From a virus: 64,000 nt of DNA. Where the stretch lies: positions 28,112-92,111 of IMG/VR virus record IMGVR_UViG_3300031111_000008; one strand, 5' to 3'. Position numbers and translations under genes: made by a program. Shown in pieces: positions 26,748 through 45,827 of the stretch. The notes beneath the pieces were generated by a model. That model was not told the DNA's origin. It worked only from the letters and a program-made list of their open reading frames with translations, and made no database searches. How positions within the stretch are numbered: position 1 is the first letter of the stretch; each line of letters opens with the position of its first letter.

Positions 26748-28118
26748 ATGAAAATCAAAAAGTTCAATCTTCAAAAAGCAAACTATGTGCTTGCTGGAAT
26801 GATTTTGGATCCCACGGTTTGCGCCAGGATTTCTTCAAAATGGAAAATCGAAGGTTTGTTCGGTGGCAGATGGCAAAATATCGTAGCCGGATGGGCAGTC
26901 AAGCATTTCAAGGAATATGGGGAAGTTCTTGGCCAGGAAAGTGTGGAAGTCAGATTCTCCGAATGGGCTGCGAAGTCGAAAAGCGAAGCCGCAATAAATT
27001 CGATGGAGGAATTTTTCTACCAGTTCGACCAGAACTACGTCGAAAAAGTCCAGGGGATGTCGTCAGAGTACCTCTTGGATTTGGCCGGTCAGATCTTCGA
27101 GCGAGTCCGAATTAGGAACACAATTGAGCAAACTCAGTTCGATCTCGATGAGGATAACGTCGAGAAGGCGTCCAGGAGGCTCGCTGAGAGCCTCAAAGTG
27201 GAATTAGGTGCTGGGAGTCTCTTCAAGCCTGCAAGCGACTACGAGCGATGGCAGGCGGCTTTTGACGCAGATCAGTCAGAACCGTTAATTACGTATCCTG
27301 GGGCAATTGGGAAACATTTCGGGAGCGACTTCTCCCGTGATTCGTTCGTCTCGTTCATCGGCATCACGGGAATCGGGAAATCTTTCTTCCTCCTGGATGC
27401 CGCCTATAGGGCAGTGAGACAGCTAAGAAGGGTGGCTTTCTTCGAGTGCGGGGACATGTCCGAAAGCCAGCTGACGCGGCGGATGGGGCAGCGGGCATTG
27501 CGCCGTCCGAAGAAAAGTTGCGAAGTCAAACGTCCGCTTGGGTGGGACGGCGATGGTATTCTCGAAACTGAGGAAATGAGGTTGGAAGGAATTTCTCCTC
27601 AAGAGTCGTATCGTGAGTGGCGAAAGATTTCGAGGAAGAGGGATCTGTTGAGAGTTTCTTGCCATTCAAACATCTCAATAAATGCGGAAGGGATTAGTTC
27701 GATTGTCGAGGATTGGGCGAGGGAAGGTTGGTTGCCAGACTGCGTGATTTGCGACTACGCCGACATCCTTGCTCCTCCTCCAGGAATTCGAGAATATAGA
27801 GATCAGATAAACGCGACGTGGCAGAGGTTGAGGAGGCTGAGCCAGGATTTTCACTGTTTGGTTCTGACGGCTACGCAGGCCGACGCGGAGAGTTATGAGA
27901 AGGGGTTGTTGACATTGCGAAGTTTTACCAACGACAGAAGGAAGAACGATCACGTCACGGCGATGATAGGTTTGAATTCCAACGTCGAGGAAAAGGAGGA
28001 AGGAACTTATCGGATCAACTTCATCAAGCGGCGTGAGGACGAGTTTAGCGTAAAGCGGGTTTGCAAAGTGGCGGGATCGTTGGCGATGGGTTGTCCGATT
28101 TTGGTTTCGAGTTTTTGA
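26748..28118 (+). CDS. DnaB-like replicative helicase
   Basis: GITGIGKS Walker A, DYAD, ATQA. Confidence 0.8.
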   Translation: MKIKKFNLQKANYVLAGMILDPTVCARISSKWKIEGLFGGRWQNIVAGWAVKHFKEYGEVLGQESVEVRFSEWAAKSKSEAAINSMEEFFYQFDQNYVEKVQGMSSEYLLDLAGQIFERVRIRNTIEQTQFDLDEDNVEKASRRLAESLKVELGAGSLFKPASDYERWQAAFDADQSEPLITYPGAIGKHFGSDFSRDSFVSFIGITGIGKSFFLLDAAYRAVRQLRRVAFFECGDMSESQLTRRMGQRALRRPKKSCEVKRPLGWDGDGILETEEMRLEGISPQESYREWRKISRKRDLLRVSCHSNISINAEGISSIVEDWAREGWLPDCVICDYADILAPPPGIREYRDQINATWQRLRRLSQDFHCLVLTATQADAESYEKGLLTLRSFTNDRRKNDHVTAMIGLNSNVEEKEEGTYRINFIKRREDEFSVKRVCKVAGSLAMGCPILVSSF

Positions 28119-32735: not shown

Positions 32736-32753
32736 TCCAGTCAAGGGGTTGTG

Positions 32754-33941
32754 ATGGAAGGTTTTCTCTCGCCTTCTGTTCTGAATACGTACGACAAACC
32801 CACGAATCCGAAGTGTGGGAAATGCGGTTTGTTTCGTAAGTGCAACTCTCCGAAGATGCCGATGACGGGAGAAGGTGGGGAGAAAATACTAGTTGTTGCG
32901 GAAGCGCCCGGAAAAAATGAAGATGAAGAAAACACTCAGCTGATAGGTAAGTCTGGACAACTCCTCCGAAAACATCTCCGAGAATGCGGGATTGATCTCG
33001 ATAGAGATTGTTGGAAAACTAATGCGGTTATTTGCTATCCAGGCGATACTCCTACTCCGAAGCAGGTGGAGTATTGCTTTGCCAATCTAAGGGCTACTAT
33101 CAAGGAAACTAATCCCGAGATCATCATTGTCCTTGGTGGCACAGCTGTCTCTTCTCTCATAGGCTGGTTGTGGAAAAGCAGTACGGGAAAGTTGTCTCGT
33201 TGGGTGGGTTGGCAAATTCCAGATCAGAAATTGAATGCTTGGATTTGTCCTACGTACCATCCGTCTTATATTCTTCGTAAGGATGAGTCTATTTACGAAG
33301 AACATTTTCATGATCACCTAGAAGCCGCCGTCAGTCTGAGAGGCAGACCCCATCCCAAGGAGCCTCGGCGATGGCATCGGGATGTACGGATCATTACGAA
33401 TACGGGCGAAGCTGCCGATGCCATCAAGAAGATTGTGGCGTGGGGAGAGGGACTAGCTGCTTTCGACTTCGAGACGGATCGACTGAAGCCCGACTCCGAG
33501 GACGCGAAGATCGTTTGTTGTTCTATAAGCCATGACGGGAAGACGATTGCTTTTCCCTGGTATGGATGCGTTCCTTCCGTAATGAAGAGGTTTATGGAAT
33601 CGGAGAGAATTGGAAAGATTGCAGCAAACATCAAATTCGAGCATCGATGGGTGAAGGCGAAGCTGGGAATCGATGTTGCGAATTGGGCTTTTGATACGAT
33701 GCAGGCGGCGCACCAGTTGGACAATCGAAAAGGAGTGACGGGGTTGAAGTTTCAATCCTACGTACGGTTGGGGCAACCTTCTTATGACGAGCACATCGCG
33801 CCGTGGCTAAAGGCCAAGTTGGGAAATGAGCAGAACCGCATAAGTAAGATTTCGACGCGGGAGCTGCTTTTGTATTGTGGTATGGATTCATTGTTGGAGT
33901 ACAAATTGGCTCTGATGCAAATGGAGGAGTTGGGAGTATGA
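32754..33941 (+). CDS. uracil-DNA glycosylase (family 4) fused to PolA 3'-5' exonuclease
   Basis: CGKCGL, AEAPG..E, TNAVICYP, YHPSYILR; then DFET, NIKFE, DTM, YCGMD. Confidence 0.88.
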   Translation: MEGFLSPSVLNTYDKPTNPKCGKCGLFRKCNSPKMPMTGEGGEKILVVAEAPGKNEDEENTQLIGKSGQLLRKHLRECGIDLDRDCWKTNAVICYPGDTPTPKQVEYCFANLRATIKETNPEIIIVLGGTAVSSLIGWLWKSSTGKLSRWVGWQIPDQKLNAWICPTYHPSYILRKDESIYEEHFHDHLEAAVSLRGRPHPKEPRRWHRDVRIITNTGEAADAIKKIVAWGEGLAAFDFETDRLKPDSEDAKIVCCSISHDGKTIAFPWYGCVPSVMKRFMESERIGKIAANIKFEHRWVKAKLGIDVANWAFDTMQAAHQLDNRKGVTGLKFQSYVRLGQPSYDEHIAPWLKAKLGNEQNRISKISTRELLLYCGMDSLLEYKLALMQMEELGV

Positions 33942-34264: not shown

Positions 34265-34571
34265 TTTTCAGGGGATGGAGAGAAAATTCTCTACGGTCTA
34301 TGCAGATCCTCCTTGGAGGTTTCGCAATCGGACTGTTAGGGGTGCTCCCGAAGGATACAACGCACATCATTATTCTACTATGAGCTTGGAAGAAATAATG
34401 GATCTTCCAGTAGGTGATTTGGTTTACATGTCTCAAAGGAGGGATCATTCACGAAAGCCCGACGAATTGCGTTCGATAATAAGATTTTGTAGTCCCGGTC
34501 CTTACTTGGAACTGTTTGCCCGCGAGAGGGTGAAAGGTTGGACGTGCTGGGGGGATGGAATAGATGGCTGA
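34257..34571 (+). pseudogene. MT-A70-family methyltransferase with in-frame internal deletion
   Basis: ADPPW..HYSTMSLEEI joined directly to HSRKPDE..YLELFARE..GW..WG; only ~104 aa. Confidence 0.7.
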
Positions 34572-35955
34572 ACTCACTCCTAAAGATGCCTACCAACTAT
34601 TTCACGAGGGGACGTTAGCCCTTGCGGACGTAGAGGCTAATGGCATACGGGTTGATGTAGCCAAGCTTGACAAGAACATTAAGAGGGTTGAGAGAAGGAT
34701 AGAAGACAACCTGAAGAAACTGAAGCGGGATGAAGTTTGGGAGAAGTGGAAGGGAGTCTATGGGGAAAAAGCAAATATTGGCAGCCGTACTCAATTGGGC
34801 AAGATCATATTCGAGCATTTGGGTTATGAATGTACCCAAAGAACGGAGAAGACTGGCAGAGCGAAAGTCAGCGAGGAAACTCTTCAAGATGTAAACATAC
34901 CCTTCACGCGGGCTTGGTTGAAGATCGAGCATTTCAGAAAATTCCTATCGACTAGCCTAAAGGGAATTCGGAACGAGTTAGTTGGTGATAGGGTCCATGC
35001 GATCTACGATTTGCATTTGGCGATTTCATTCCGTTCCCGGTGCGAACGTCCCAACATGCAGAACCAGCCGATCAGGGAACCAGTTACAGGCAAGCTGATT
35101 CGAGAGTGTTTCATTGCCAGCCCGAACCACCACATCATGGAAGCGGATTTCGGAAGCTTGGAGTTTCTCATAGCGTGCTGTTTTTGGTGTGATGACACTA
35201 TGATCGAGTACGCCAACGATGAGACAAGGGATATTCATCGGGACATGGCGACTGAGTGTTACCACCTTCCTGAGAACGCGGTCCCGAAAGATTGTAGATT
35301 CTATACGAAGAACCAATTCGTATTTCCCCAGCTGTACGGCAGCGATTACGTAGCCTGTTCGAGAAATCTGTGGCACGCAATCGAAACCGCTAAGCTGAAG
35401 ACGGCGGATGGAATTCCTCTCAGGAGACATTTACGTAGAGAACTGGGGATTAAAAAGCTAGGTAGGTGCAGCCACAAATTTGATCCGTTTCCGGGAACGT
35501 ATGAGTACTACATTCGCCGTGTTCAGAACAACTTCAACAAACGCTTCTCTCAATACGCTGCCCGAAAGGAAGTCTGGTGGGAAAAGTACAAGGAGACGCG
35601 GCAGTTTCGGCTAATGACTGGTTTTGATGTTCGTGGGGTGTATCGGAAAAACCAGGTTTACAACATACCGATCCAGGGACCAGCCTTCCACTGTTTGCTT
35701 TGGAGTTTGATTCGTATGAACAACTGGTTGAAAGAGAACAACATGCGAACAAAGATCGTGGGGACGGTCCACGATTCAATCGTCTTCGATGTTCACAAGG
35801 ATGAGTTGGGAATAGTCATGAGGAAGTGCAAGGAAGTCATGACAAAGGACATACGGAAAGTTTGGGATTGGATTATCGTGCCTCTGAAAGTCGAGTTTGA
35901 GGCTTCGCCTGTGAACGGTTCTTGGTGGGAAAAGAAGGAGATTGATGATGCCTAG
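34564..35955 (+). CDS. polA: family A DNA polymerase, polymerase domain
   Basis: PNMQNQP, ADFGSLE, DIH, R..TK..VFPQLYG, NIPIQG, VHDS. Confidence 0.92.
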   Translation: MAELTPKDAYQLFHEGTLALADVEANGIRVDVAKLDKNIKRVERRIEDNLKKLKRDEVWEKWKGVYGEKANIGSRTQLGKIIFEHLGYECTQRTEKTGRAKVSEETLQDVNIPFTRAWLKIEHFRKFLSTSLKGIRNELVGDRVHAIYDLHLAISFRSRCERPNMQNQPIREPVTGKLIRECFIASPNHHIMEADFGSLEFLIACCFWCDDTMIEYANDETRDIHRDMATECYHLPENAVPKDCRFYTKNQFVFPQLYGSDYVACSRNLWHAIETAKLKTADGIPLRRHLRRELGIKKLGRCSHKFDPFPGTYEYYIRRVQNNFNKRFSQYAARKEVWWEKYKETRQFRLMTGFDVRGVYRKNQVYNIPIQGPAFHCLLWSLIRMNNWLKENNMRTKIVGTVHDSIVFDVHKDELGIVMRKCKEVMTKDIRKVWDWIIVPLKVEFEASPVNGSWWEKKEIDDA

Positions 35956-39263: not shown

Positions 39264-40361
39264 ATGCCAAAGAAAAAAGAAGTCGAGTACGTCGAGTCGC
39301 TGCTGAAGAAAGAAAGAAGCATGATGTTTGAGTCTCCAGGATTTCTGTCGTCGGGTAGCACGCTTTTGAATCTGGCTTGCACGGGGACGGTGGATGGGGC
39401 GTGGCCAATAGGGGCATATAGCTTGTTCATCGGAGATTCTTCGTCGGGGAAAACATGGGTTGGTTTATCGAGTCTTGCTGAAGCTTCTATCGATTCGAGG
39501 TTTGATTCTTATCGTCTGATTTATGACGGCGGCGAGTTCGGCGCTATGATGTCAATTCAGGATTACTTTGGCAAAAAGTTAGCAGAGAGGATTGAACCTC
39601 CCGCCTATGAGGATGGGATTCCTGTAGCTTCCCGTACGGTAGAAGAGATGTATGTCAGGATAGACGACGCGCTGGAAGATAGTCGTCCGTTTATTTGGAT
39701 TGAAGATTCGATGGATTGTCTCTCGTCGCTGGCGGAAATTGGTAAATTCAAGGACGTTCGGGATGCCGTGAAGAAGGATCGGGAAGTTTCTGGTTCGTAC
39801 GGAGATGGAAAAGCAAAAGTAAATTCTTCCAATCTCCGCAGGCTTATGACTCCTTTGCGGGAAAGTGGAAGTATCTTATTGATCCTGAACCAAACCCGTG
39901 ATTCGTTTGATCAATTTACCGCCAAAACTCGCAGTGGTGGTAGGGCTTTAGGTTTCTACGCCCAGGTCGAAGTTTGGTCTTCCATTAAGGAGCGGCTGAA
40001 GCGGACAGTAAACAAAAAGAAAAGGCAGTATGGAATTGTTAGCAAAATGGACGTGAAGCGGTCTCGGGTTACGGGTAAGGAGAGGACGGCGTTCGTACCC
40101 ATTTTGAATTCATCAGGGATAGACGAGTACGGATCGTTAGTAGACTTCCTCGTCGATGAGGGGGTTTGGAAGAAGGCTCGGGGGAAGCAGTCGTTGTTGG
40201 TTGATAATGCTTTCTCGATGAAGGAAGTTACTCGGGGAAAGCTAATCAAGATGGCCGAGGAGGATCCCGACGTTGCGGAGACCATGCGGGATTTGGTGCT
40301 AGAGACGTGGGATGGCATCGAAGAAGCTTTGAAGCCATTGAGGAAGAAACGGTATGGTTAA
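39264..40361 (+). CDS. recA: RecA/UvsX-like recombinase
   Basis: SSGSTLLNLA, GDSSSGKT, DS, NQTRD, SGGRALGFYA. Confidence 0.9.
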   Translation: MPKKKEVEYVESLLKKERSMMFESPGFLSSGSTLLNLACTGTVDGAWPIGAYSLFIGDSSSGKTWVGLSSLAEASIDSRFDSYRLIYDGGEFGAMMSIQDYFGKKLAERIEPPAYEDGIPVASRTVEEMYVRIDDALEDSRPFIWIEDSMDCLSSLAEIGKFKDVRDAVKKDREVSGSYGDGKAKVNSSNLRRLMTPLRESGSILLILNQTRDSFDQFTAKTRSGGRALGFYAQVEVWSSIKERLKRTVNKKKRQYGIVSKMDVKRSRVTGKERTAFVPILNSSGIDEYGSLVDFLVDEGVWKKARGKQSLLVDNAFSMKEVTRGKLIKMAEEDPDVAETMRDLVLETWDGIEEALKPLRKKRYG

Positions 40362-41525
40362 GGAGGGGCTCGGTTGGGTTCGTTCTGTCATGTTGTGTTG
40401 GGGTGAGTTTCGGCCTTCAGCGGCGGGGCAAGTTACGTTTGGTTATGGTAAGGATTTTTAACTTCCAAGCAAACAAATGAGGTAAGTTAAGGCAAGATTC
40501 TTCCAGGTTGATTCCCGTCAAGTTTAGGTCGGTTGTGTTTGGTTCGTGTTGGGTATGTTGTGGTTTGTTGCGATCAGGTAAGGACTTTTTAACTTCCAAG
40601 CAAACAAATGAGGTGATGTCAGGCAAGCCGCGTTATGGTGAGGCGAAATGAGGCACGGCTTGGCGAGTTGGGTTATGTTCAGGCGTGTTTCTACAGGGTT
40701 GGTTCTGTTCAGTTTAGTCATGGCAAGGCAAGGACTTTTCAATTTCCAAGCAAACAACTCTGGTAGGTTTAGTTTTGGTAGTGTAAGGCATAGGTATGGT
40801 GTAGCAGGTTATGTTTGTGTTTGGTTTGTCAAGGTTTGGATGTCGGAATGGGGATTTGAGAATACAAATGAGGCATGGTATGTCGGGTCTGGTTGCGTTG
40901 CGGAATGTTCGGGCTTGTTGCGGCATGTTGGGTTCGGGTATGTTGCGGCGCGGCAAGTTACGGTCAGTCTTGCTTTGCTTAAGGTTGGGTTTGTTAGGGT
41001 AAGGGTTTTAACTTCTAAGCAAACAAACGAGTTAAGTTACGTTGTGTCGTGTTTCGGTTTGGTGTGACATGTTAAGTTACGGTACGTCTTGGTAGATTTC
41101 GGTCTGTTCGGTTCGGTTTAGGCTGGGTTTGGTTCTTTCATGTTCTGTCAAGTTGAGGCAAGGACTTTTTCATTTTCAAGCAGACAAATGAGATTCGGCA
41201 AGGCGGGTTGGGGTTAGTTGGGGCGGTGTTCATTCGGTTACGACAAGGTCGGTTCCGTTGGGTTATGGTAAGGATTTTTAACTTTCAAGAAAACAAATAA
41301 GGCATGTTAGGATTTGTTGGGGAATGTCGTGTCGCGGTGGGTTTTGTTACGGAGTGTCATGTCGCGGTGGGTTTTGTTACGGAGCGTTATGGCAAGGACT
41401 TTTTGAGCAGACAAGCGTGGTGAGGCTAGGAGGGGACGGGCGAGGTAGGATATTTTTTGGCTAGTTTCGGCTCGGCTGGTTGTTTCATGTTCCGTCAAGT
41501 TATGGTAAGGACTTTTTCAAAAATG
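40362..41525 (+). repeat. array of nine units of phased G[G/T][C/T]NN pentamers, each closed by a conserved ~35-nt motif (candidate guide-RNA array)
   Basis: motif GGYAAGGAYTTTT..AYTTCCAAGCAAACAAATGAGG at 40447, 40577, 40727, 40845 (degenerate), 40998, 41157, 41267, 41391, 41504; 5-nt phase in between. Confidence 0.85.
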
Positions 41526-42023
41526 AAATATACAGGAAGACCTTTTGGACTTCATCCTCATCCAGCTCATTGGGAAAAGATCAGGAAACAAGCTCTGAAG
41601 CGGGATGGTTATCAATGCAGACTTTGCAACCATTCTCAGAAGGATGGATACAGGCTTGAATGTCATCATCGGCATTATGAAAATTGGGGCGAAGAGAACC
41701 TTGAAGACGTGACGATGCTTTGTATCGAATGTCACGATCTGATTACAAATTACAATCGAGAGTCTAGGTATGCAGAACGGGAATACTCTATGACTCCTTA
41801 TGTTTCTCCCGTTCATTTACAAGGGGATGAAGATGCGAAAGACGATGAAGATGAAGTGGATCGGACAGTCACCGTTGATTTGCCACAATGGGCAACTAGC
41901 AGACCCGTTAAACGTGTGGTCCCAAAGGATCAAGAAGATCTCGTCAAAATCGAAAAAAACGGAAGCCGATCTGATGGAAATGGGCCATTTGGAGTTTTTA
42001 GGGGGCCTTTACCTGGACAATGA
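41523..42023 (+). CDS. HNH endonuclease
   Basis: RDGYQCRLC..LECHHRHY..EDVTMLCIECH; ATG lies inside the last array motif. Confidence 0.8.
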   Translation: MKYTGRPFGLHPHPAHWEKIRKQALKRDGYQCRLCNHSQKDGYRLECHHRHYENWGEENLEDVTMLCIECHDLITNYNRESRYAEREYSMTPYVSPVHLQGDEDAKDDEDEVDRTVTVDLPQWATSRPVKRVVPKDQEDLVKIEKNGSRSDGNGPFGVFRGPLPGQ

Positions 42024-42465
42024 TGAGGAACCCTGTATTCCAGAATTGTTGATCGAAGCAACTCTTCTAGGAGGAGCAAAAAAATTCAAGGAAGGTCCGA
42101 AAGCAAAAGCTGGAATTTTTGTCATTGCCCCTGCGAAAATCAAGTATGACGGTCCAAAGGACGCGGAAGAACTCTGGGAATCTCCCGATTTCCGTTCCCG
42201 TACTCCGGCCAAGATTGGGCAGAGCAAGGTGATGAGAACTCGCCCAATTTTCCACGAATGGGAAATTGAATTCGAGATAAACTTTGACGATGAGATGCTC
42301 GATGAGGAAAGATTGTTGGAGTGGGCCAAGGCGGCTGGTGCCCAGGTAGGACTTGGTGATTGGCGTCCACGGCATGGAAGATTTTTGGTTAAGGTGGTCG
42401 AAGGAAAGAACGGGAAGTCTGTGATGAGCAAAAAGAAGCGGAGGATGGTAGCGGCGGAAAGCTAG
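41833..42465 (+). CDS. stand-alone RAMP/Cas7-like protein (putative)
   Basis: N-terminal strand + SPLICHN, PCIP..IEATL, RTRP.F.EW, C-terminal Gly-rich loop AGAQVGLGDWRPRHGRF; start approximate (AAGGGG RBS 41821). Confidence 0.6.
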   Translation: MRKTMKMKWIGQSPLICHNGQLADPLNVWSQRIKKISSKSKKTEADLMEMGHLEFLGGLYLDNDEEPCIPELLIEATLLGGAKKFKEGPKAKAGIFVIAPAKIKYDGPKDAEELWESPDFRSRTPAKIGQSKVMRTRPIFHEWEIEFEINFDDEMLDEERLLEWAKAAGAQVGLGDWRPRHGRFLVKVVEGKNGKSVMSKKKRRMVAAES

Positions 42466-42475
42466 GAAATCATTC

Positions 42476-42516
42476 AGGGACGGGGGAATGATTTCGTTCC
42501 CCTGATCCCTCCTTTT
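42476..42516 (+). terminator. terminator-like hairpin after RAMP-like gene
   Basis: AGGGA..GGGGAATG/CGTTCCCC..TCCCT then CCTTTT. Confidence 0.55.
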
Positions 42517-42518
42517 GT

Positions 42519-42590
42519 TAGGAAGCAAAAATGAGAACCCTCCTTATCGTCGATTGTTCCGCAGTTTGTCACAAAGCATTCTCCGGATTC
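42519..42590 (+). repeat. left copy of ~72-bp direct repeat (exonuclease gene start)
   Basis: near-identical to 44972-45044. Confidence 0.9.
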
Positions 42591-42725
42591 GACGGTTCGA
42601 TGGGTACTTTGGTGAAGACTATCGAGGAGGAGGGCAAGGAGAAAGAGTTGCGGGAGATCGTCGGGGATGTCTGGCAGGAGATCGAGAGGTCTTTGCGGGT
42701 GAAGAGGAAAAAGAGGTACGAGTGA
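42531..42725 (+). pseudogene. chimeric ORF beginning with duplicated exonuclease N-terminus
   Basis: MRTLLIVDCSAVC identical to ORF 44985, then unrelated sequence. Confidence 0.7.
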
Positions 42726-42818
42726 TGCCATGCACTCTCTCAGCCTTGTTCGTCGCGATTATCGAGCTGGTGATATTCTTGTTCATGCTTTTGGAGACGG
42801 TTGGGAGGAAGTAAAAAC

Positions 42819-44246
42819 ATGGGGAAGGAAAAACGAGATAGACCGAAACGGAATATAGGGGTAATAAAATTTGAGATTTTGAAGCCTTTGGGAGGGATGA
42901 CCTGGAAGGAATTGTCGAACATCCTTCGCGACGTTCGTTATAGAACTCAGCGTCTTGCCAACAAGTTTATGAGTGAGAGGTTTTTGGAGGCTAAGCTGCG
43001 CCAGAGTAATCCAGGAAAGGAAATTCCGAAAACGTCCATTGGGGAATTAAACAGAGTTCTTTTGGAGGAATTGATTAAAGAAAAGAAAAAGAAGAGGGAG
43101 GAAGTAAAGGAGTTTTCTAGAGTGGGGGCGTTGTGTTCCACAGTGTATGACGCTCTCCATCAGTATAATTTGTACGCGCTAACTACCAAATCTGCTTGGA
43201 CAAAGGTTTTGCGAGGAGAATCTTCCTTACCAACTTTCAAAAATAACATACCGATACCCATTCGATGTGATGGGGATGGGCGCAAGAGGTTGGCGAGAAG
43301 TTGGCGGGGAGGTGTCGTGCTTCGGTTGATGGTTTGTTTACGTCCATATCCCCGAGTGCTTTTGAAAACAAAGAGATTGAGTGATGGGGCTAAGACTGTT
43401 TTGGAAAGATTGTTGGATAATCCCGACCAGCTGGAAAGTGGTTATCGGCAGCGGGCTTTCGAGGTCAAGTATGACGAGAAGAAGAAAAAGTGGTGGTTGT
43501 ATGTTACTTACGACTTTCCTCCCGAGAAAGTGGAAGTTTCTAAAGACATCGTTGTGGGAGTTGATCTAGGATATGCTTGTCCTGCGTATGCAGCTCTGAG
43601 CAATGGTGAAGCTCGTTTGGGATGGAAAGTTTTTGCGGGGATTGCAGCAAGAGTAAAGCGGATACAAATAATGACTTTTGCCACAAGACGGAACATGTTG
43701 AGGGGAGGAAGATCAAGTTTGTGTGAGGACACGGCCAGAAGTGGGCATGGAAGGAAGAGAAAGTTGAAATGTACAGAAGCTCAGCAAGGAAAGATAAATG
43801 ATGCTTATACAACAATGAACCATCAGATTTCGAGGGCGGTAGTAGATTTTGCTGAGAGAAATCATGCAGGCATAATCCAAGTCGAGGATCTGTCGGGTCT
43901 AGATGATTATCTATCTGGAACATTCTTGGGGGAGAGATGGCGATACTACCAGCTGCAACAATACATCGAATATAAGGCAGAGCAGTGTGGGATTGGGTTT
44001 CGGAAGGTTAATCCTAGGTACACGAGCCGCCGCTGTAGCAAGTGCGGTTATATCAACAATGGGTTTACTAGAAAGTCCAGAGATTCAAATAAAGAGAAGG
44101 GAGGAAAGACTGTCAAGTTCGAGTGTCCCGAGTGTGGACACAAGAGCGATCCAGATTACAATGCCGCTAAGAATTTAACGGTGTTGGGTGTGGATGCTTT
44201 GATTGAGAACCAATGTAAAAAACAAGGAATAGAATTGAGTGTTTGA
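42819..44246 (+). CDS. cas12f: type V-F Cas12f1-like RNA-guided nuclease (475 aa)
   Basis: GGAGG RBS; RuvC-I VGVDLG, RuvC-II IQVEDL, CSKC/CPEC, RuvC-III DPDYNAAKNL; KFEILKPL..WKEL, LRGESSLPTFK, ARSGHGRKRK; adjacent CRISPR array. Confidence 0.85.
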   Translation: MGKEKRDRPKRNIGVIKFEILKPLGGMTWKELSNILRDVRYRTQRLANKFMSERFLEAKLRQSNPGKEIPKTSIGELNRVLLEELIKEKKKKREEVKEFSRVGALCSTVYDALHQYNLYALTTKSAWTKVLRGESSLPTFKNNIPIPIRCDGDGRKRLARSWRGGVVLRLMVCLRPYPRVLLKTKRLSDGAKTVLERLLDNPDQLESGYRQRAFEVKYDEKKKKWWLYVTYDFPPEKVEVSKDIVVGVDLGYACPAYAALSNGEARLGWKVFAGIAARVKRIQIMTFATRRNMLRGGRSSLCEDTARSGHGRKRKLKCTEAQQGKINDAYTTMNHQISRAVVDFAERNHAGIIQVEDLSGLDDYLSGTFLGERWRYYQLQQYIEYKAEQCGIGFRKVNPRYTSRRCSKCGYINNGFTRKSRDSNKEKGGKTVKFECPECGHKSDPDYNAAKNLTVLGVDALIENQCKKQGIELSV

Positions 44247-44454
44247 TATGAGGTCATCAACAATGTCTTTTGTAGTCTACGGACAATCCAAAAGCAGATG
44301 GCTGAAGGCGATCCTGAATCGCCTCAAGGTTGAGAAGGGTTTGGGTAACATGGCAAAAATTGCCTTCCAGATACCGCTCACCAAACAGTTTTCTCATTTT
44401 TTGCCTCAAAAATTTCACCTAAAGACAGCGGGGGGCTTGGTTTGCAGCAAACCT
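44247..44454 (+). ncRNA. tracrRNA candidate / leader
   Basis: CCTAAAGACAG 44418-28 complementary to repeat 3' end CTGTCTTCAGG (1 mismatch); hairpins ~44303-26 and ~44352-64. Confidence 0.6.
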
Positions 44455-44940
44455 GGTGGAGATACCAGTGAAATGAGGACTGTCTTCAGGGATAGGGAAC
44501 GAATACGGGCGGAGGGTGCGGGTGGAGATACCAGTGAAATGAGGACTGTCTTCAGGGTATCGAAAGCCATGGCGGACATCTCCAAGGTGGAGATACCAGT
44601 GAAATGAGGACTGTCTTCAGGGGAAAGCCGTCGATGGTAATTGAAAGCTCTGGTGGAGATACCAGTGAAATGAGGACTGTCTTCAGGACATAGCGTAAAC
44701 CTACGTGCATGATGCGGGGTGGAGATACCAGTGAAATGAGGACTGTCTTCAGGGTTCGTCGGTAACTGTCTGACGGTAAATACGGTGGAGATACCAGTGA
44801 AATGAGGACTGTCTTCAGGGCAAAAGCAACGTGCTGACTATGCGTTGGGGTGGAGATACCAGTGAAATGAGGACTGTCTTTAGGGACTTCAGCGCGTCGA
44901 CTGCGGTGGAGATACCAGTGAAATGAGGACTGTCTTCAGG
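44455..44940 (+). CRISPR. CRISPR array, 8 x 36-nt repeats, 7 spacers
   Basis: GGTGGAGATACCAGTGAAATGAGGACTGTCTTCAGG at 44455, 44521, 44586, 44652, 44718, 44784, 44849 (one C>T), 44905; spacers 30,29,30,30,30,29,20 nt. Confidence 0.97.
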
Positions 44941-44971
44941 AATGGGTGCAAATGTGAACAGAGAGATCTAG

Positions 44972-45044
44972 TAGGAAGCAAAAAATGAGAACCCTCCTTA
45001 TCGTCGATTGTTCCGCAGTTTGTTACAGAGCATTCTTCGGAATC
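44972..45044 (+). repeat. right copy of ~72-bp direct repeat
   Basis: near-identical to 42519-42590. Confidence 0.9.
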
Positions 45045-45827
45045 AAAAATCAGCTCTCACATGAAGACGAGCCAACCGCTGTCATCTACGGCTTCTTGAC
45101 TCAGCTTCTAGCCATCAAGGAAGATTTCTACGCGGACGGAGTCGTATTCACGTTCGACTACGGCAGAAGCCTGCGCCGGGAAGTCTATCCTAACTACAAA
45201 TCCTCTCGCAGGACAAAGAGGAAAGAGCAATCTATAGAGGACAAGATCCTCTTCAGCCAGCTTCAAGCCCAGATGTACCAACTCAGGACGGAGATCCTTC
45301 CTGAAATGGGGTACAAGAACGTCTTCTTCCAGAAAGGCTACGAAGCTGATGATGTCATAGCCTCTCTCTGCCATAATTCTTTGGCGAAGGACGAGTACGC
45401 AATCGTCGTCTCGAACGACGAGGACTTGTTCCAGCTACTCACAAAACGGATTTCGATTTGGAATCCCTCTTCCCACAAACGCATTACCCTGAAGTCCTTT
45501 CAAAAGCAGTATCGAATCTCAGCGCCGCAGTGGGCGGACGTGAAAGCGATTGCTGGTTGTGATACGGATGACGTGGCAGGTGTGGCAGGCGTCGGCAACA
45601 TCACGGCCTGCAAGTTCCTCGGCGGGATTCTTAAGCCGACGACAAAAGCCCACAAGAAGATCGTCGAAAGTAGAAACCTTTGGGACAGGAACCTCCCATT
45701 AGTGAAGCTTCCTTACGAGGGAACGGAGACGTTCGTGATCCAAGAGGACAAGATCAAACAGAAGAAGTGGGATCAGATGATGGAGAAGTACGGCATGGAG
45801 AGCTTGAAGGGCGAAACCCCGTTGTGA
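44985..45827 (+). CDS. 5'-3' exonuclease/flap endonuclease (T4 RNase H-like)
   Basis: LLIVD, YPNYK, GYEADDVI, SNDEDLFQL, GCDTDDVAGV.GVG. Confidence 0.92.
   Translation: MRTLLIVDCSAVCYRAFFGIKNQLSHEDEPTAVIYGFLTQLLAIKEDFYADGVVFTFDYGRSLRREVYPNYKSSRRTKRKEQSIEDKILFSQLQAQMYQLRTEILPEMGYKNVFFQKGYEADDVIASLCHNSLAKDEYAIVVSNDEDLFQLLTKRISIWNPSSHKRITLKSFQKQYRISAPQWADVKAIAGCDTDDVAGVAGVGNITACKFLGGILKPTTKAHKKIVESRNLWDRNLPLVKLPYEGTETFVIQEDKIKQKKWDQMMEKYGMESLKGETPL

Follow-up and report, generated by a model that had tools for sequence, protein, structure and literature searches.

The DNA analysed here, a stretch of 64,000 nucleotides (nt) referred to as the window, covers positions 28,112 to 92,111 of the IMG/VR virus record IMGVR_UViG_3300031111_000008. 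The contig derives from a marine sediment metagenome and represents a tailed phage. Within its replication and recombination module, a recA-like gene is directly followed by 1.16 kb of pentameric repeats, an HNH gene, an open reading frame (ORF) of 210 amino acids (aa) and a strong hairpin, all on the + strand, which together form a minimal locus of array, vipr and one accessory gene (Table 1). A first-pass annotation, made from the sequence alone, had likened the locus to phage VIPR systems, in which GGY-NN RNAs are combined with a RAMP-like protein. Such systems do exist: VIPR (Viral Interference Programmable Repeat) is a CRISPR-like form of RNA-guided DNA recognition in phages that was first described in preprints of 2026 (bioRxiv 10.64898/2026.04.26.720920,.720927, 10.64898/2026.10.15.759431). 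The features of the locus strongly suggest that it is a VIPR system carried by a tailed phage, comprising nine guide RNAs (vrRNAs), the RAMP protein Vipr and an HNH partner.

As described in the available text of the discovery preprints, the parts of a VIPR system are a minimal RAMP (Vipr), vrRNAs made of pentamers with a GGY trinucleotide and two variable bases (NN) and closed by an invariable tail, and, in most cases, a single accessory gene (vap) (bioRxiv 10.64898/2026.04.26.720920,.720927). According to the same portions of text, the NN dinucleotides pair with DNA and one target base is skipped per repeat (bioRxiv 10.64898/2026.04.26.720920,.720927).

Table 1. Coordinates of the features at the VIPR locus, numbered from the first base of the window.
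Feature	Position	Strand	Basis
RecA-like recombinase gene, directly upstream of the array; Walker A codons 39411-39461	39264..40361	+	Pfam RecA, 7.4e-10
vrRNA array, nine G-K-Y-N-N guide units, each closed by a conserved tail	40362..41522	+	period-5 statistics, parse, sole GKYNN runs in the genome
Guide 1, 17 pentamers, NN string spells the RecA-type Walker A box by the one-base-skip rule	40362..40446	+	codon-box match
Tail of unit 1 (GGTAAGGATTTTTAACTTCCAAGCAAACAAATGA), reference copy of the conserved motif	40447..40485	+	
Unit 2: guide 40486-40576 (start possibly 40481), tail from 40577	40486..40616	+	
Unit 3: guide 40617-40726 (start possibly 40612), tail from 40727	40617..40761	+	
Unit 4: guide to about 40844, degenerate tail from 40845, several phase slips	40762..40871	+	
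Unit 5: guide 40872-40997 (25 pentamers), tail from 40998	40872..41030	+	
Unit 6: guide about 41031-41156, tail from 41157	41031..41191	+	
Unit 7: guide 41192-41266, tail from 41267	41192..41300	+	
Unit 8: guide 41301-41390, shortened tail from 41391	41301..41418	+	
Unit 9: guide 41419-41503, tail from 41504, truncated by the HNH start	41419..41522	+	
HNH accessory gene (vap-like), 166 aa	41523..42023	+	Pfam, NCBIfam, PADLOC, alignment, model
191 nt shared, out of frame, by the end of the HNH gene and the start of vipr	41833..42023	+	kept in relatives
vipr gene, 210 aa, RAMP/Cas7-like, G-loop GLGDWRPRHGRF, basic C-terminal extension	41833..42465	+	homology, model, 723 homologues
Strong hairpin with a T-rich stretch after it, probable terminator of a recA-array-HNH-vipr unit	42476..42510	+	-27.7 kcal/mol, z = -3.1; missed by a simple terminator scan

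The 210-aa ORF is the most readily identified part of the locus. A phmmer search of the PDB returned a single entry, 36pp_D ('SUSP1 Vipr protein'), with E = 3e-30, residues 3-193 being aligned with residues 2-194 of the entry. Compared with Felixounavirus vipr genes of the phage collection, the identity is 37.6%, and 723 Vipr homologues of similar length are detectable. The annotated start agrees with the N-termini of the homologues and has AAGGGGA 7 nt upstream. An AlphaFold2 (AF2) model of the protein has a mean predicted local distance difference test (pLDDT) score of 91.3, and its best Foldseek matches in the PDB are Csm3/Cas7 proteins (for Csm3, E about 1e-5, probability 1.0 and a template modelling score of 0.45-0.5); Csm3 is the Cas7 subunit of type III-A complexes. 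The full-length match to SUSP1 Vipr and the Csm3/Cas7-like fold of the model bear out the proposal of the first-pass annotation that this ORF encodes a RAMP/Cas7-like protein, and give a positive outcome to the structure prediction and Foldseek comparison it had suggested.

Cryo-electron microscopy of SUSP1 Vipr has revealed how the scaffold trinucleotide is read: H17 and D177 contact G1, R138 and W178 contact G2, R179 contacts Y3, and K33 contacts the backbone at the skipped base (bioRxiv 10.64898/2026.04.26.720920,.720927). In a pairwise alignment, SUSP1 residues H17, K33, R138, D177, W178 and R179 correspond to H18, K34, R137, D176, W177 and R178 of the window protein. H18, R137, D176, W177 and R178 are invariant or nearly so among 36 aligned sequences; K34 is not. 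The glycine-rich loop GLGDWRPRHGRF aligns with GVGDWRPRFGRF of SUSP1. The protein is therefore a minimal RAMP with an RRM core, a Gly-rich loop and a thumb that is homologous to a characterised Vipr and retains the residues that read the trinucleotide. Its basic C-terminal extension (approximately residues 190-210, encoded by 42400-42465) is modelled with low confidence and occurs in only a subset of relatives, for example loci L004-L007, L013 and L064.

The repeats upstream of the HNH gene had been read as a G[G/T][C/T]NN array of period 5 that begins after the recA stop codon, and both statistics and parsing confirm this. Across 40362-41522 the autocorrelation reaches 0.426 at lag 5 and stays at 0.36-0.39 for lags 10, 15, 20, 25 and 30, compared with approximately 0.25 in the flanking genes. 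In 500 dinucleotide-preserving shuffles of this segment the lag-5 value was 0.280 +/- 0.013 (maximum 0.315), which places the observed value at z = 11.4. At lag 3 the array shows only the background level (0.248) and thus no coding periodicity. A cyclic 5-state Viterbi parse yields exact 5-mers for 218 of 229 segments and keeps phase through nearly all of the 1.16 kb. Runs of GKYNN occur only on the + strand of the array; none was found outside it on either strand of the 92,111-base genome.

The nine tracts of the array total 168 pentamers, and each vrRNA unit consists of 15-25 pentamers followed by a conserved tail. Of these pentamers, 90% have G at position 1, 93% have G or T at position 2 (in approximately equal shares) and 95% have a pyrimidine (C or T) at position 3, while positions 4 and 5 are near-uniform; the full GKY trinucleotide is present in 81%. 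When units are anchored on their tails, scaffold positions are 0.60 identical between units compared with an identity of 0.29 for the NN strings, in agreement with the earlier observation that these strings are unit-specific and that the region is not a simple satellite. Tandem pentamers with three conserved and two hypervariable positions, in at least four units, are the hallmark of VIPR arrays, and they are present here as a related consensus. Within guide 8, a 30-nt block of six pentamers (41326-41355) is repeated in tandem (41356-41385) with two differences, which implies that internal duplication can lengthen guides.

The conserved motif that closes each tract begins GGYAAGGAYTTTT, and all nine of its start positions had been placed correctly in the first pass. 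Seven copies are strongly conserved, the copy at 40845 is degenerate and the last one (41504) is cut off by the HNH start codon. The consensus, GGTAAGGACTTTTTAA-TT-CAAGCAAACAAATGAGG, is itself in pentamer phase. The motif had been proposed to act as a processing or handle signal. It corresponds to the published invariable 3' tail, and a role in processing stays putative. A possible GG-AAG/CUUCC hairpin in the tail shows only one-sided C/U changes, and an Rfam scan of 39500-45500 found no ribozyme and no known RNA. The TAAGGA of the last tail lies 10 nt before the ATG of the HNH gene and could serve as the ribosome-binding site of that gene.

Two further resemblances concern the boundaries of the repeat tracts. 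The last recA-like codons and stop codon (40340-40366, GGTATGGTTAAGGAGG), after which guide 1 directly follows, resemble the start of a vrRNA tail (GTTATGGTAAGGA). In Escherichia phage wV8 (locus L081, 2300-2345, 3585-3610 and 3690-3725), the segments between vrRNAs read AAGGTCTTT...GGGTCTTTTAATGAGG just before the repeat tracts, which is similar to AAGGACTTTTT...AAATGAGG in the tails of the window. The SUSP1-like system of wV8 and that of the window are distant, and from these similarities they may share a boundary element.

Promoter and terminator scans gave results at chance level, and no terminator-like site was seen between recA and the array. This result, coupled with the strong hairpin after vipr, where the first-pass annotation had also noted a terminator, makes co-transcription and processing of the array plausible.

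The arrangement of array and vipr is not peculiar to this phage. We examined 80 related vipr loci from IMG/VR (43-52% identity). A same-strand, G-phased array of period 5 adjoins vipr in 79 of them, and the eightieth record ends at vipr; the question whether homologues sit beside pentamer arrays is thereby answered in the affirmative. Arrays of the relatives lie mostly downstream of vipr and in some cases on both sides, whereas that of the window is upstream only. Most relatives use GGY, and loci L005 and L013 are relaxed at position 2 as in the window. Other scaffolds were also encountered, namely GGA-NN with A at position 3 in L049 (2001-2392) and L033 (5567-5890), and G-[C/T]-T-NN in L076 (4291-4690); all three loci have the same HNH-vipr arrangement. 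The window and many of the relatives are viral records, several of them with terminal repeats.

The gene that precedes vipr was correctly placed in the first pass as an HNH gene downstream of the array on the same strand. Its Pfam HNH match is weak (E 0.037, 14.6 bits, below the cut-off), and the protein also matches the NCBIfam IscB HNH region (4e-7) and PADLOC ZorE (1.6e-6). Residues C32, C35, H48, H49, Y52, C67 and H71 are invariant in 35 aligned homologues, and the resulting CxxC...HH...CxxCH is, at the level of sequence, the pattern of a zinc-bound HNH active site. In the AF2 model, a core of about residues 8-90 is predicted with pLDDT >90 and the remainder is predicted to be disordered; this disordered C-terminal tail is encoded inside vipr. 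The HNH core (41523-41790) is closest in structure to the HNH domains of Cas5-HNH and type I-E HNH Cascade, with a root mean square deviation of 1.3-1.5 A over 66-68 columns and 27-29% identity, at a Foldseek E of only 0.05-0.1; a type I-F HNH is also among the closest solved structures. The likeness of the modelled core to Cascade HNH domains may reflect an old partnership between RAMP and HNH proteins, or may be due to chance among small HNH folds.

Of the 80 loci, 73 have an HNH homologue as the immediate upstream neighbour of vipr. In 72 of these 73, the HNH frame enters vipr by 35-290 nt (median 140 for the whole set), with vipr always one base ahead. The overlapping frame stays open for a median of approximately 45 codons, compared with 0.054 stops per codon (one every 18 codons) in the same frame over the rest of vipr, and the third frame closes at a median of 5 codons. 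Such a length of open frame across diverged loci indicates that the overlap is maintained rather than accidental, although some of its amino-acid conservation necessarily follows from the nearly invariant Vipr motif HNGQLADP in the other frame. That nearly all HNH-linked loci retain the overlap is an argument for counting the nuclease as part of the system. We found no mention of an HNH-vipr overlap in the text of the discovery preprint, figures not included. We also considered programmed frameshifting that would yield an HNH-Vipr fusion, but rejected it as the main explanation, as it leaves the approximately 45 open codons into vipr unexplained; moreover, a search for fused HNH-Vipr proteins of 369-2000 aa found none, which is weak evidence.

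To decode the guides we applied the published one-base-skip rule, under which successive NN dinucleotides pair with DNA that reads NNxNNx. Treated as NNx codons, the 17 pentamers of guide 1 read G-S-[C/W]-S-L-[I/M]-V-G-[D/E]-S-L-A-G-[K/N]-T-[C/W]-[I/M]. When this string was placed on 120 listed relatives of the phage RecA-like protein, its best position was the Walker A site in every one, with 7-13 of the 17 codon boxes matched. The top score of 13 was reached in relative P0154 (GACSLIIGDSRAGKTWL), compared with a maximum of 9 for 200 shuffled guides, none of which equalled it (0/200). Against the phage's own proteome, guide 1 matches 10 of 17 boxes (0/100 shuffles), in frame, at residue 50 of the RecA-like protein, and is the sole standout among 18 guide orientations. 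This match fixes the boundaries of the unit: the guide consists of exactly those pentamers that lie between the recA stop codon and the tail, the degenerate pentamer included.

At the DNA level, the site in the phage's own recA (39411-39461) agrees with guide 1 at 23 of 34 NN positions. This is below the 80% match that, according to the accessible preprint text, was used to call natural targets (bioRxiv 10.64898/2026.04.26.720920,.720927). The own gene thus differs at 11 of 34 read positions and would therefore be spared. For the best RecA-like relatives (P0154 and P0128), the codon boxes would permit agreement at up to 30 of 34 positions. A close RecA-like gene is absent from all 43 VIPR-bearing viral records examined, GenBank phages offer only RecA-like relatives of about 28% identity, and short-peptide tblastn searches for the DNA of RecA-like relatives found nothing. 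In the phage's own genome, the best scores of the nine guides are within the range of shuffles and no self-target stands out. The 80 related VIPR loci hold no match above shuffles for whole guides or for 10-pentamer sub-guides, and no guide matches the Vipr homologues. Exact 9-11-pentamer seeds of guides 1, 3, 5, 6, 7 and 8, run against IMG/VR, metagenome and genome collections, gave seed-only matches with the remainder at chance.

The following mechanism most probably accounts for these features. The 1.16 kb after recA would encode nine vrRNAs, probably within a single transcript that also covers recA, HNH and vipr and stops at the hairpin. By homology with SUSP1 Vipr, and with filament assembly, the skip rule and silencing taken from the preprints, Vipr protomers would polymerise along each vrRNA in 5-nt steps. 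Each protomer would hold positions 1-3 (G, G/U and Y) and present positions 4 and 5, and the presented dinucleotides would pair with DNA reading NNxNNx. The first-pass annotation had envisaged just such a subunit, bound once per pentamer, with the constant trinucleotide held and NN presented, and this agrees with the published cryo-EM description. Guide 1 appears to be aimed at the Walker A box of RecA-like recombinase genes in related phages. Its aim, together with the mismatches to the phage's own recA, suggests that the system is most likely a weapon against competing phages. The HNH nuclease would most likely be the effector; we infer that it is recruited to, and cuts, DNA marked by the Vipr-vrRNA filament.

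Several observations weigh against this interpretation. Strict GGY is found in only 35% of the pentamers, and in the GFP repression assays reported in the available preprint text, perturbation of GGY abolished silencing, with GGY>GAY among the substitutions tested (bioRxiv 10.64898/2026.04.26.720920,.720927). Predicted folding of the tails is weak (z between -1.2 and +1.5, nothing beyond shuffles), whereas the SUSP1 tail is a pseudoknot. The nuclease-bearing VIPR types are described, in the same portions of text, mainly from host defence islands (bioRxiv 10.64898/2026.04.26.720920,.720927), and the locus of the window is in a phage. The target of guide 1 is supported at the level of protein and codon boxes, and no DNA target matching at 80% or more was obtained. 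For the remaining eight guides, no target was identified in the phage's own genome or proteome, in the 80 VIPR loci or among the RecA-like relatives (for six of the guides, seeds were searched in the collections). Finally, the only sequencing run that contains sequence of the locus is a DNA run of a marine sediment metagenome, and no RNA run is listed.

Other explanations of the locus have to be weighed against the same evidence. VIPR might act here solely by silencing transcription, as in the type II system of SUSP1, with the HNH gene a homing- or packaging-type passenger that has no role in targeting. Free-standing HNH genes are common in phages, and in two of them, Gordonia phage MakoManhole and Escherichia phage wV8, vipr lacks this HNH gene and is followed by an accessory gene instead. 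However, members of one HNH family immediately precede vipr at 73 of 80 diverse loci (43-55% Vipr identity) and overlap it in a fixed frame at 72, and a mobile passenger would not keep such a position and frame. Furthermore, the catalytic and zinc residues are invariant, and in a quick tree with weak support the HNH-linked Viprs form a large group apart from the HNH-less SUSP1-like ones; the Vipr of the window falls in this group and not with those of wV8 and MakoManhole. A passenger HNH is therefore unlikely. It is more improbable still that the HNH protein matures the array transcript or helps to load vrRNAs without cutting target DNA. The lack of a ribozyme or known processing element in the array by Rfam, the last tail that abuts the HNH start, and the preprint text at hand, in which the cutting of contiguous arrays is not explained, would leave room for such a function. 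Yet the nearest relatives of the protein in sequence or fold are DNA nucleases (IscB HNH, ZorE, Cas5-HNH, type I-E HNH Cascade and T4 endonuclease VII), and systems of the SUSP1 type process vrRNAs without such a gene.

There is next to no chance that the region is a G/T-rich satellite or a translated low-complexity gene, such as the 139-aa ORF at 40648-41067. Several ORFs of 57-139 aa are indeed open in the array, because G/T-rich DNA has few stop codons. The period, however, is 5 and not 3, positions 1-3 are fixed while 4 and 5 are free, and NN identity is as low as 0.29 between units that share common tails. The same architecture also accompanies Vipr homologues in 79 of 80 loci, and guide 1 decodes to a Walker A box. 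Translation as a low-complexity gene, which the first-pass annotation had named as the finding that would speak against it, is ruled out as far as sequence analysis reaches.

Among characterised VIPR systems, the locus is best compared with the type II systems of SUSP1 (Felixounavirus) and a Pseudomonas fulva prophage. These have in common with the window a homologous Vipr with the G1, G2 and Y3 contacts, pentamers with two free positions and an invariable tail, a phage setting and one-base-skip decoding in register with codons. In type II systems, however, the accessory gene is vap1, which encodes a predicted DNA-binding protein and lies downstream of vipr in the two records inspected (wV8 and MakoManhole), whereas the window has HNH upstream of, and overlapping, vipr, and nothing similar to vap1 after it. 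Type II guides number one upstream and three downstream, with 9-16 pentamers each, compared with nine guides of 15-25 pentamers, all upstream, in the window. The window also differs in the equal shares of G and T at position 2, in its tail, for which no pseudoknot is supported, and in the basic extension of its Vipr. Because the accessory gene is an HNH gene and is upstream, and because Vipr falls in the HNH-linked group of the weakly supported tree, the locus does not fit type II.

A relationship with the nuclease-bearing types (III-V) is indicated instead by the HNH accessory gene; these types, to judge from the available preprint text, also have a predicted HNH accessory protein next to vipr. 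In that text they differ from the tailed-phage locus with its nine guides in being set mainly in host defence islands, and type III seems to be among the systems with one vrRNA. The preprint is not uniform on the distribution of nucleases: the legend of fig. S21 lists HNH among the Vap domains of types II, III and VII, and the text at hand gives predicted nucleases in types III and V only (bioRxiv 10.64898/2026.04.26.720920,.720927). As far as their available text goes, related consensus repeats are reported in the first VIPR preprints (bioRxiv 10.64898/2026.04.26.720920,.720927) and more non-canonical motifs in the later one (10.64898/2026.10.15.759431). Since related consensus sequences are found both there and among the relatives, the G-K-Y scaffold represents the relaxed end of a known range and not a new code. 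The suggestion in the first pass of a distinct variant is thus borne out only in part: GKY consensus, multi-unit array and linked HNH are all present, and all three are already mentioned in the preprint text at hand. The locus is a well-supported further example of a known system rather than a new kind of system, and leaves the known principle unchanged.

With the Cas7/Csm3 proteins of class 1 CRISPR-Cas systems, Vipr shares the RRM core, Gly-rich loop and thumb, and the HNH core is similar to those of Cas5-HNH and type I-E HNH systems. The step of class 1 complexes is 6 nt, in contrast to the 5-nt step and gapped code of the window, and the window has no repeat-spacer array that serves the RAMP and no Cas5, Cas6, Cas8, Cas10, Cas11 or adaptation genes. 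Assignment of the window RAMP to a class 1 CRISPR effector was rejected, as the sole CRISPR array (44455-44946) belongs to a Cas12f-like gene in a separately duplicated cassette; no other cas genes were seen.

A more far-reaching interpretation can be offered only tentatively, and we regard it as possible but doubtful. The HNH protein would be an obligate, co-evolved partner of Vipr in a large phage clade, with a tail of approximately 45-60 residues overprinted on the codons of the Vipr N-terminus for coupled synthesis or docking. The filament would have been turned from a silencer into a cutter that phages use on their rivals, and not hosts alone as suggested in the preprint, and U would be tolerated at position 2, relaxing the GGY rule.

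With the first descriptions of VIPR dating only from 2026, the number of natural loci studied in detail is still small. The nine-guide G-K-Y array bears on the strictness of Vipr at position 2 and on the design of array searches. Guide 1, directed at the P-loop of a rival recombinase and mismatched to the phage's own copy, provides an example of aiming at codons that are hard to change. The phage also carries VIPR and a miniature CRISPR system of the Cas12f type side by side.

The latter is a mini type V CRISPR-Cas system at 42801-44946, approximately 340 nt downstream of vipr. Its 481-aa protein is similar to Cas12f/Cas12u3 (PADLOC 7e-79; NCBIfam TnpB family 4.9e-38) and is followed, after a gap of 208 nt, by the CRISPR array of eight 36-nt repeats with spacers of 20-30 nt. 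No adaptation genes were seen beside it. The spacers, examined for a rival shared with the VIPR guides, gave no self match, and two of them have no match in IMG/VR. A 64-nt direct repeat (94% identical; 42527-42590 and 44981-45044) brackets the 2.45-kb Cas12-CRISPR cassette. What is duplicated is the beginning of the flap endonuclease gene (44985-45827), and the left copy of the repeat opens a 64-aa chimeric ORF.

Besides the RecA-like protein and the flap endonuclease, the contig encodes a tape measure protein, helicases, a DnaB-like helicase, a clamp, a DNA polymerase and an exonuclease. The DNA polymerase is split over two ORFs (32751-33941 and 34564-35955), approximately 620 nt apart, that match consecutive parts of phrog_17 (positions 478-828 and 834-1238).

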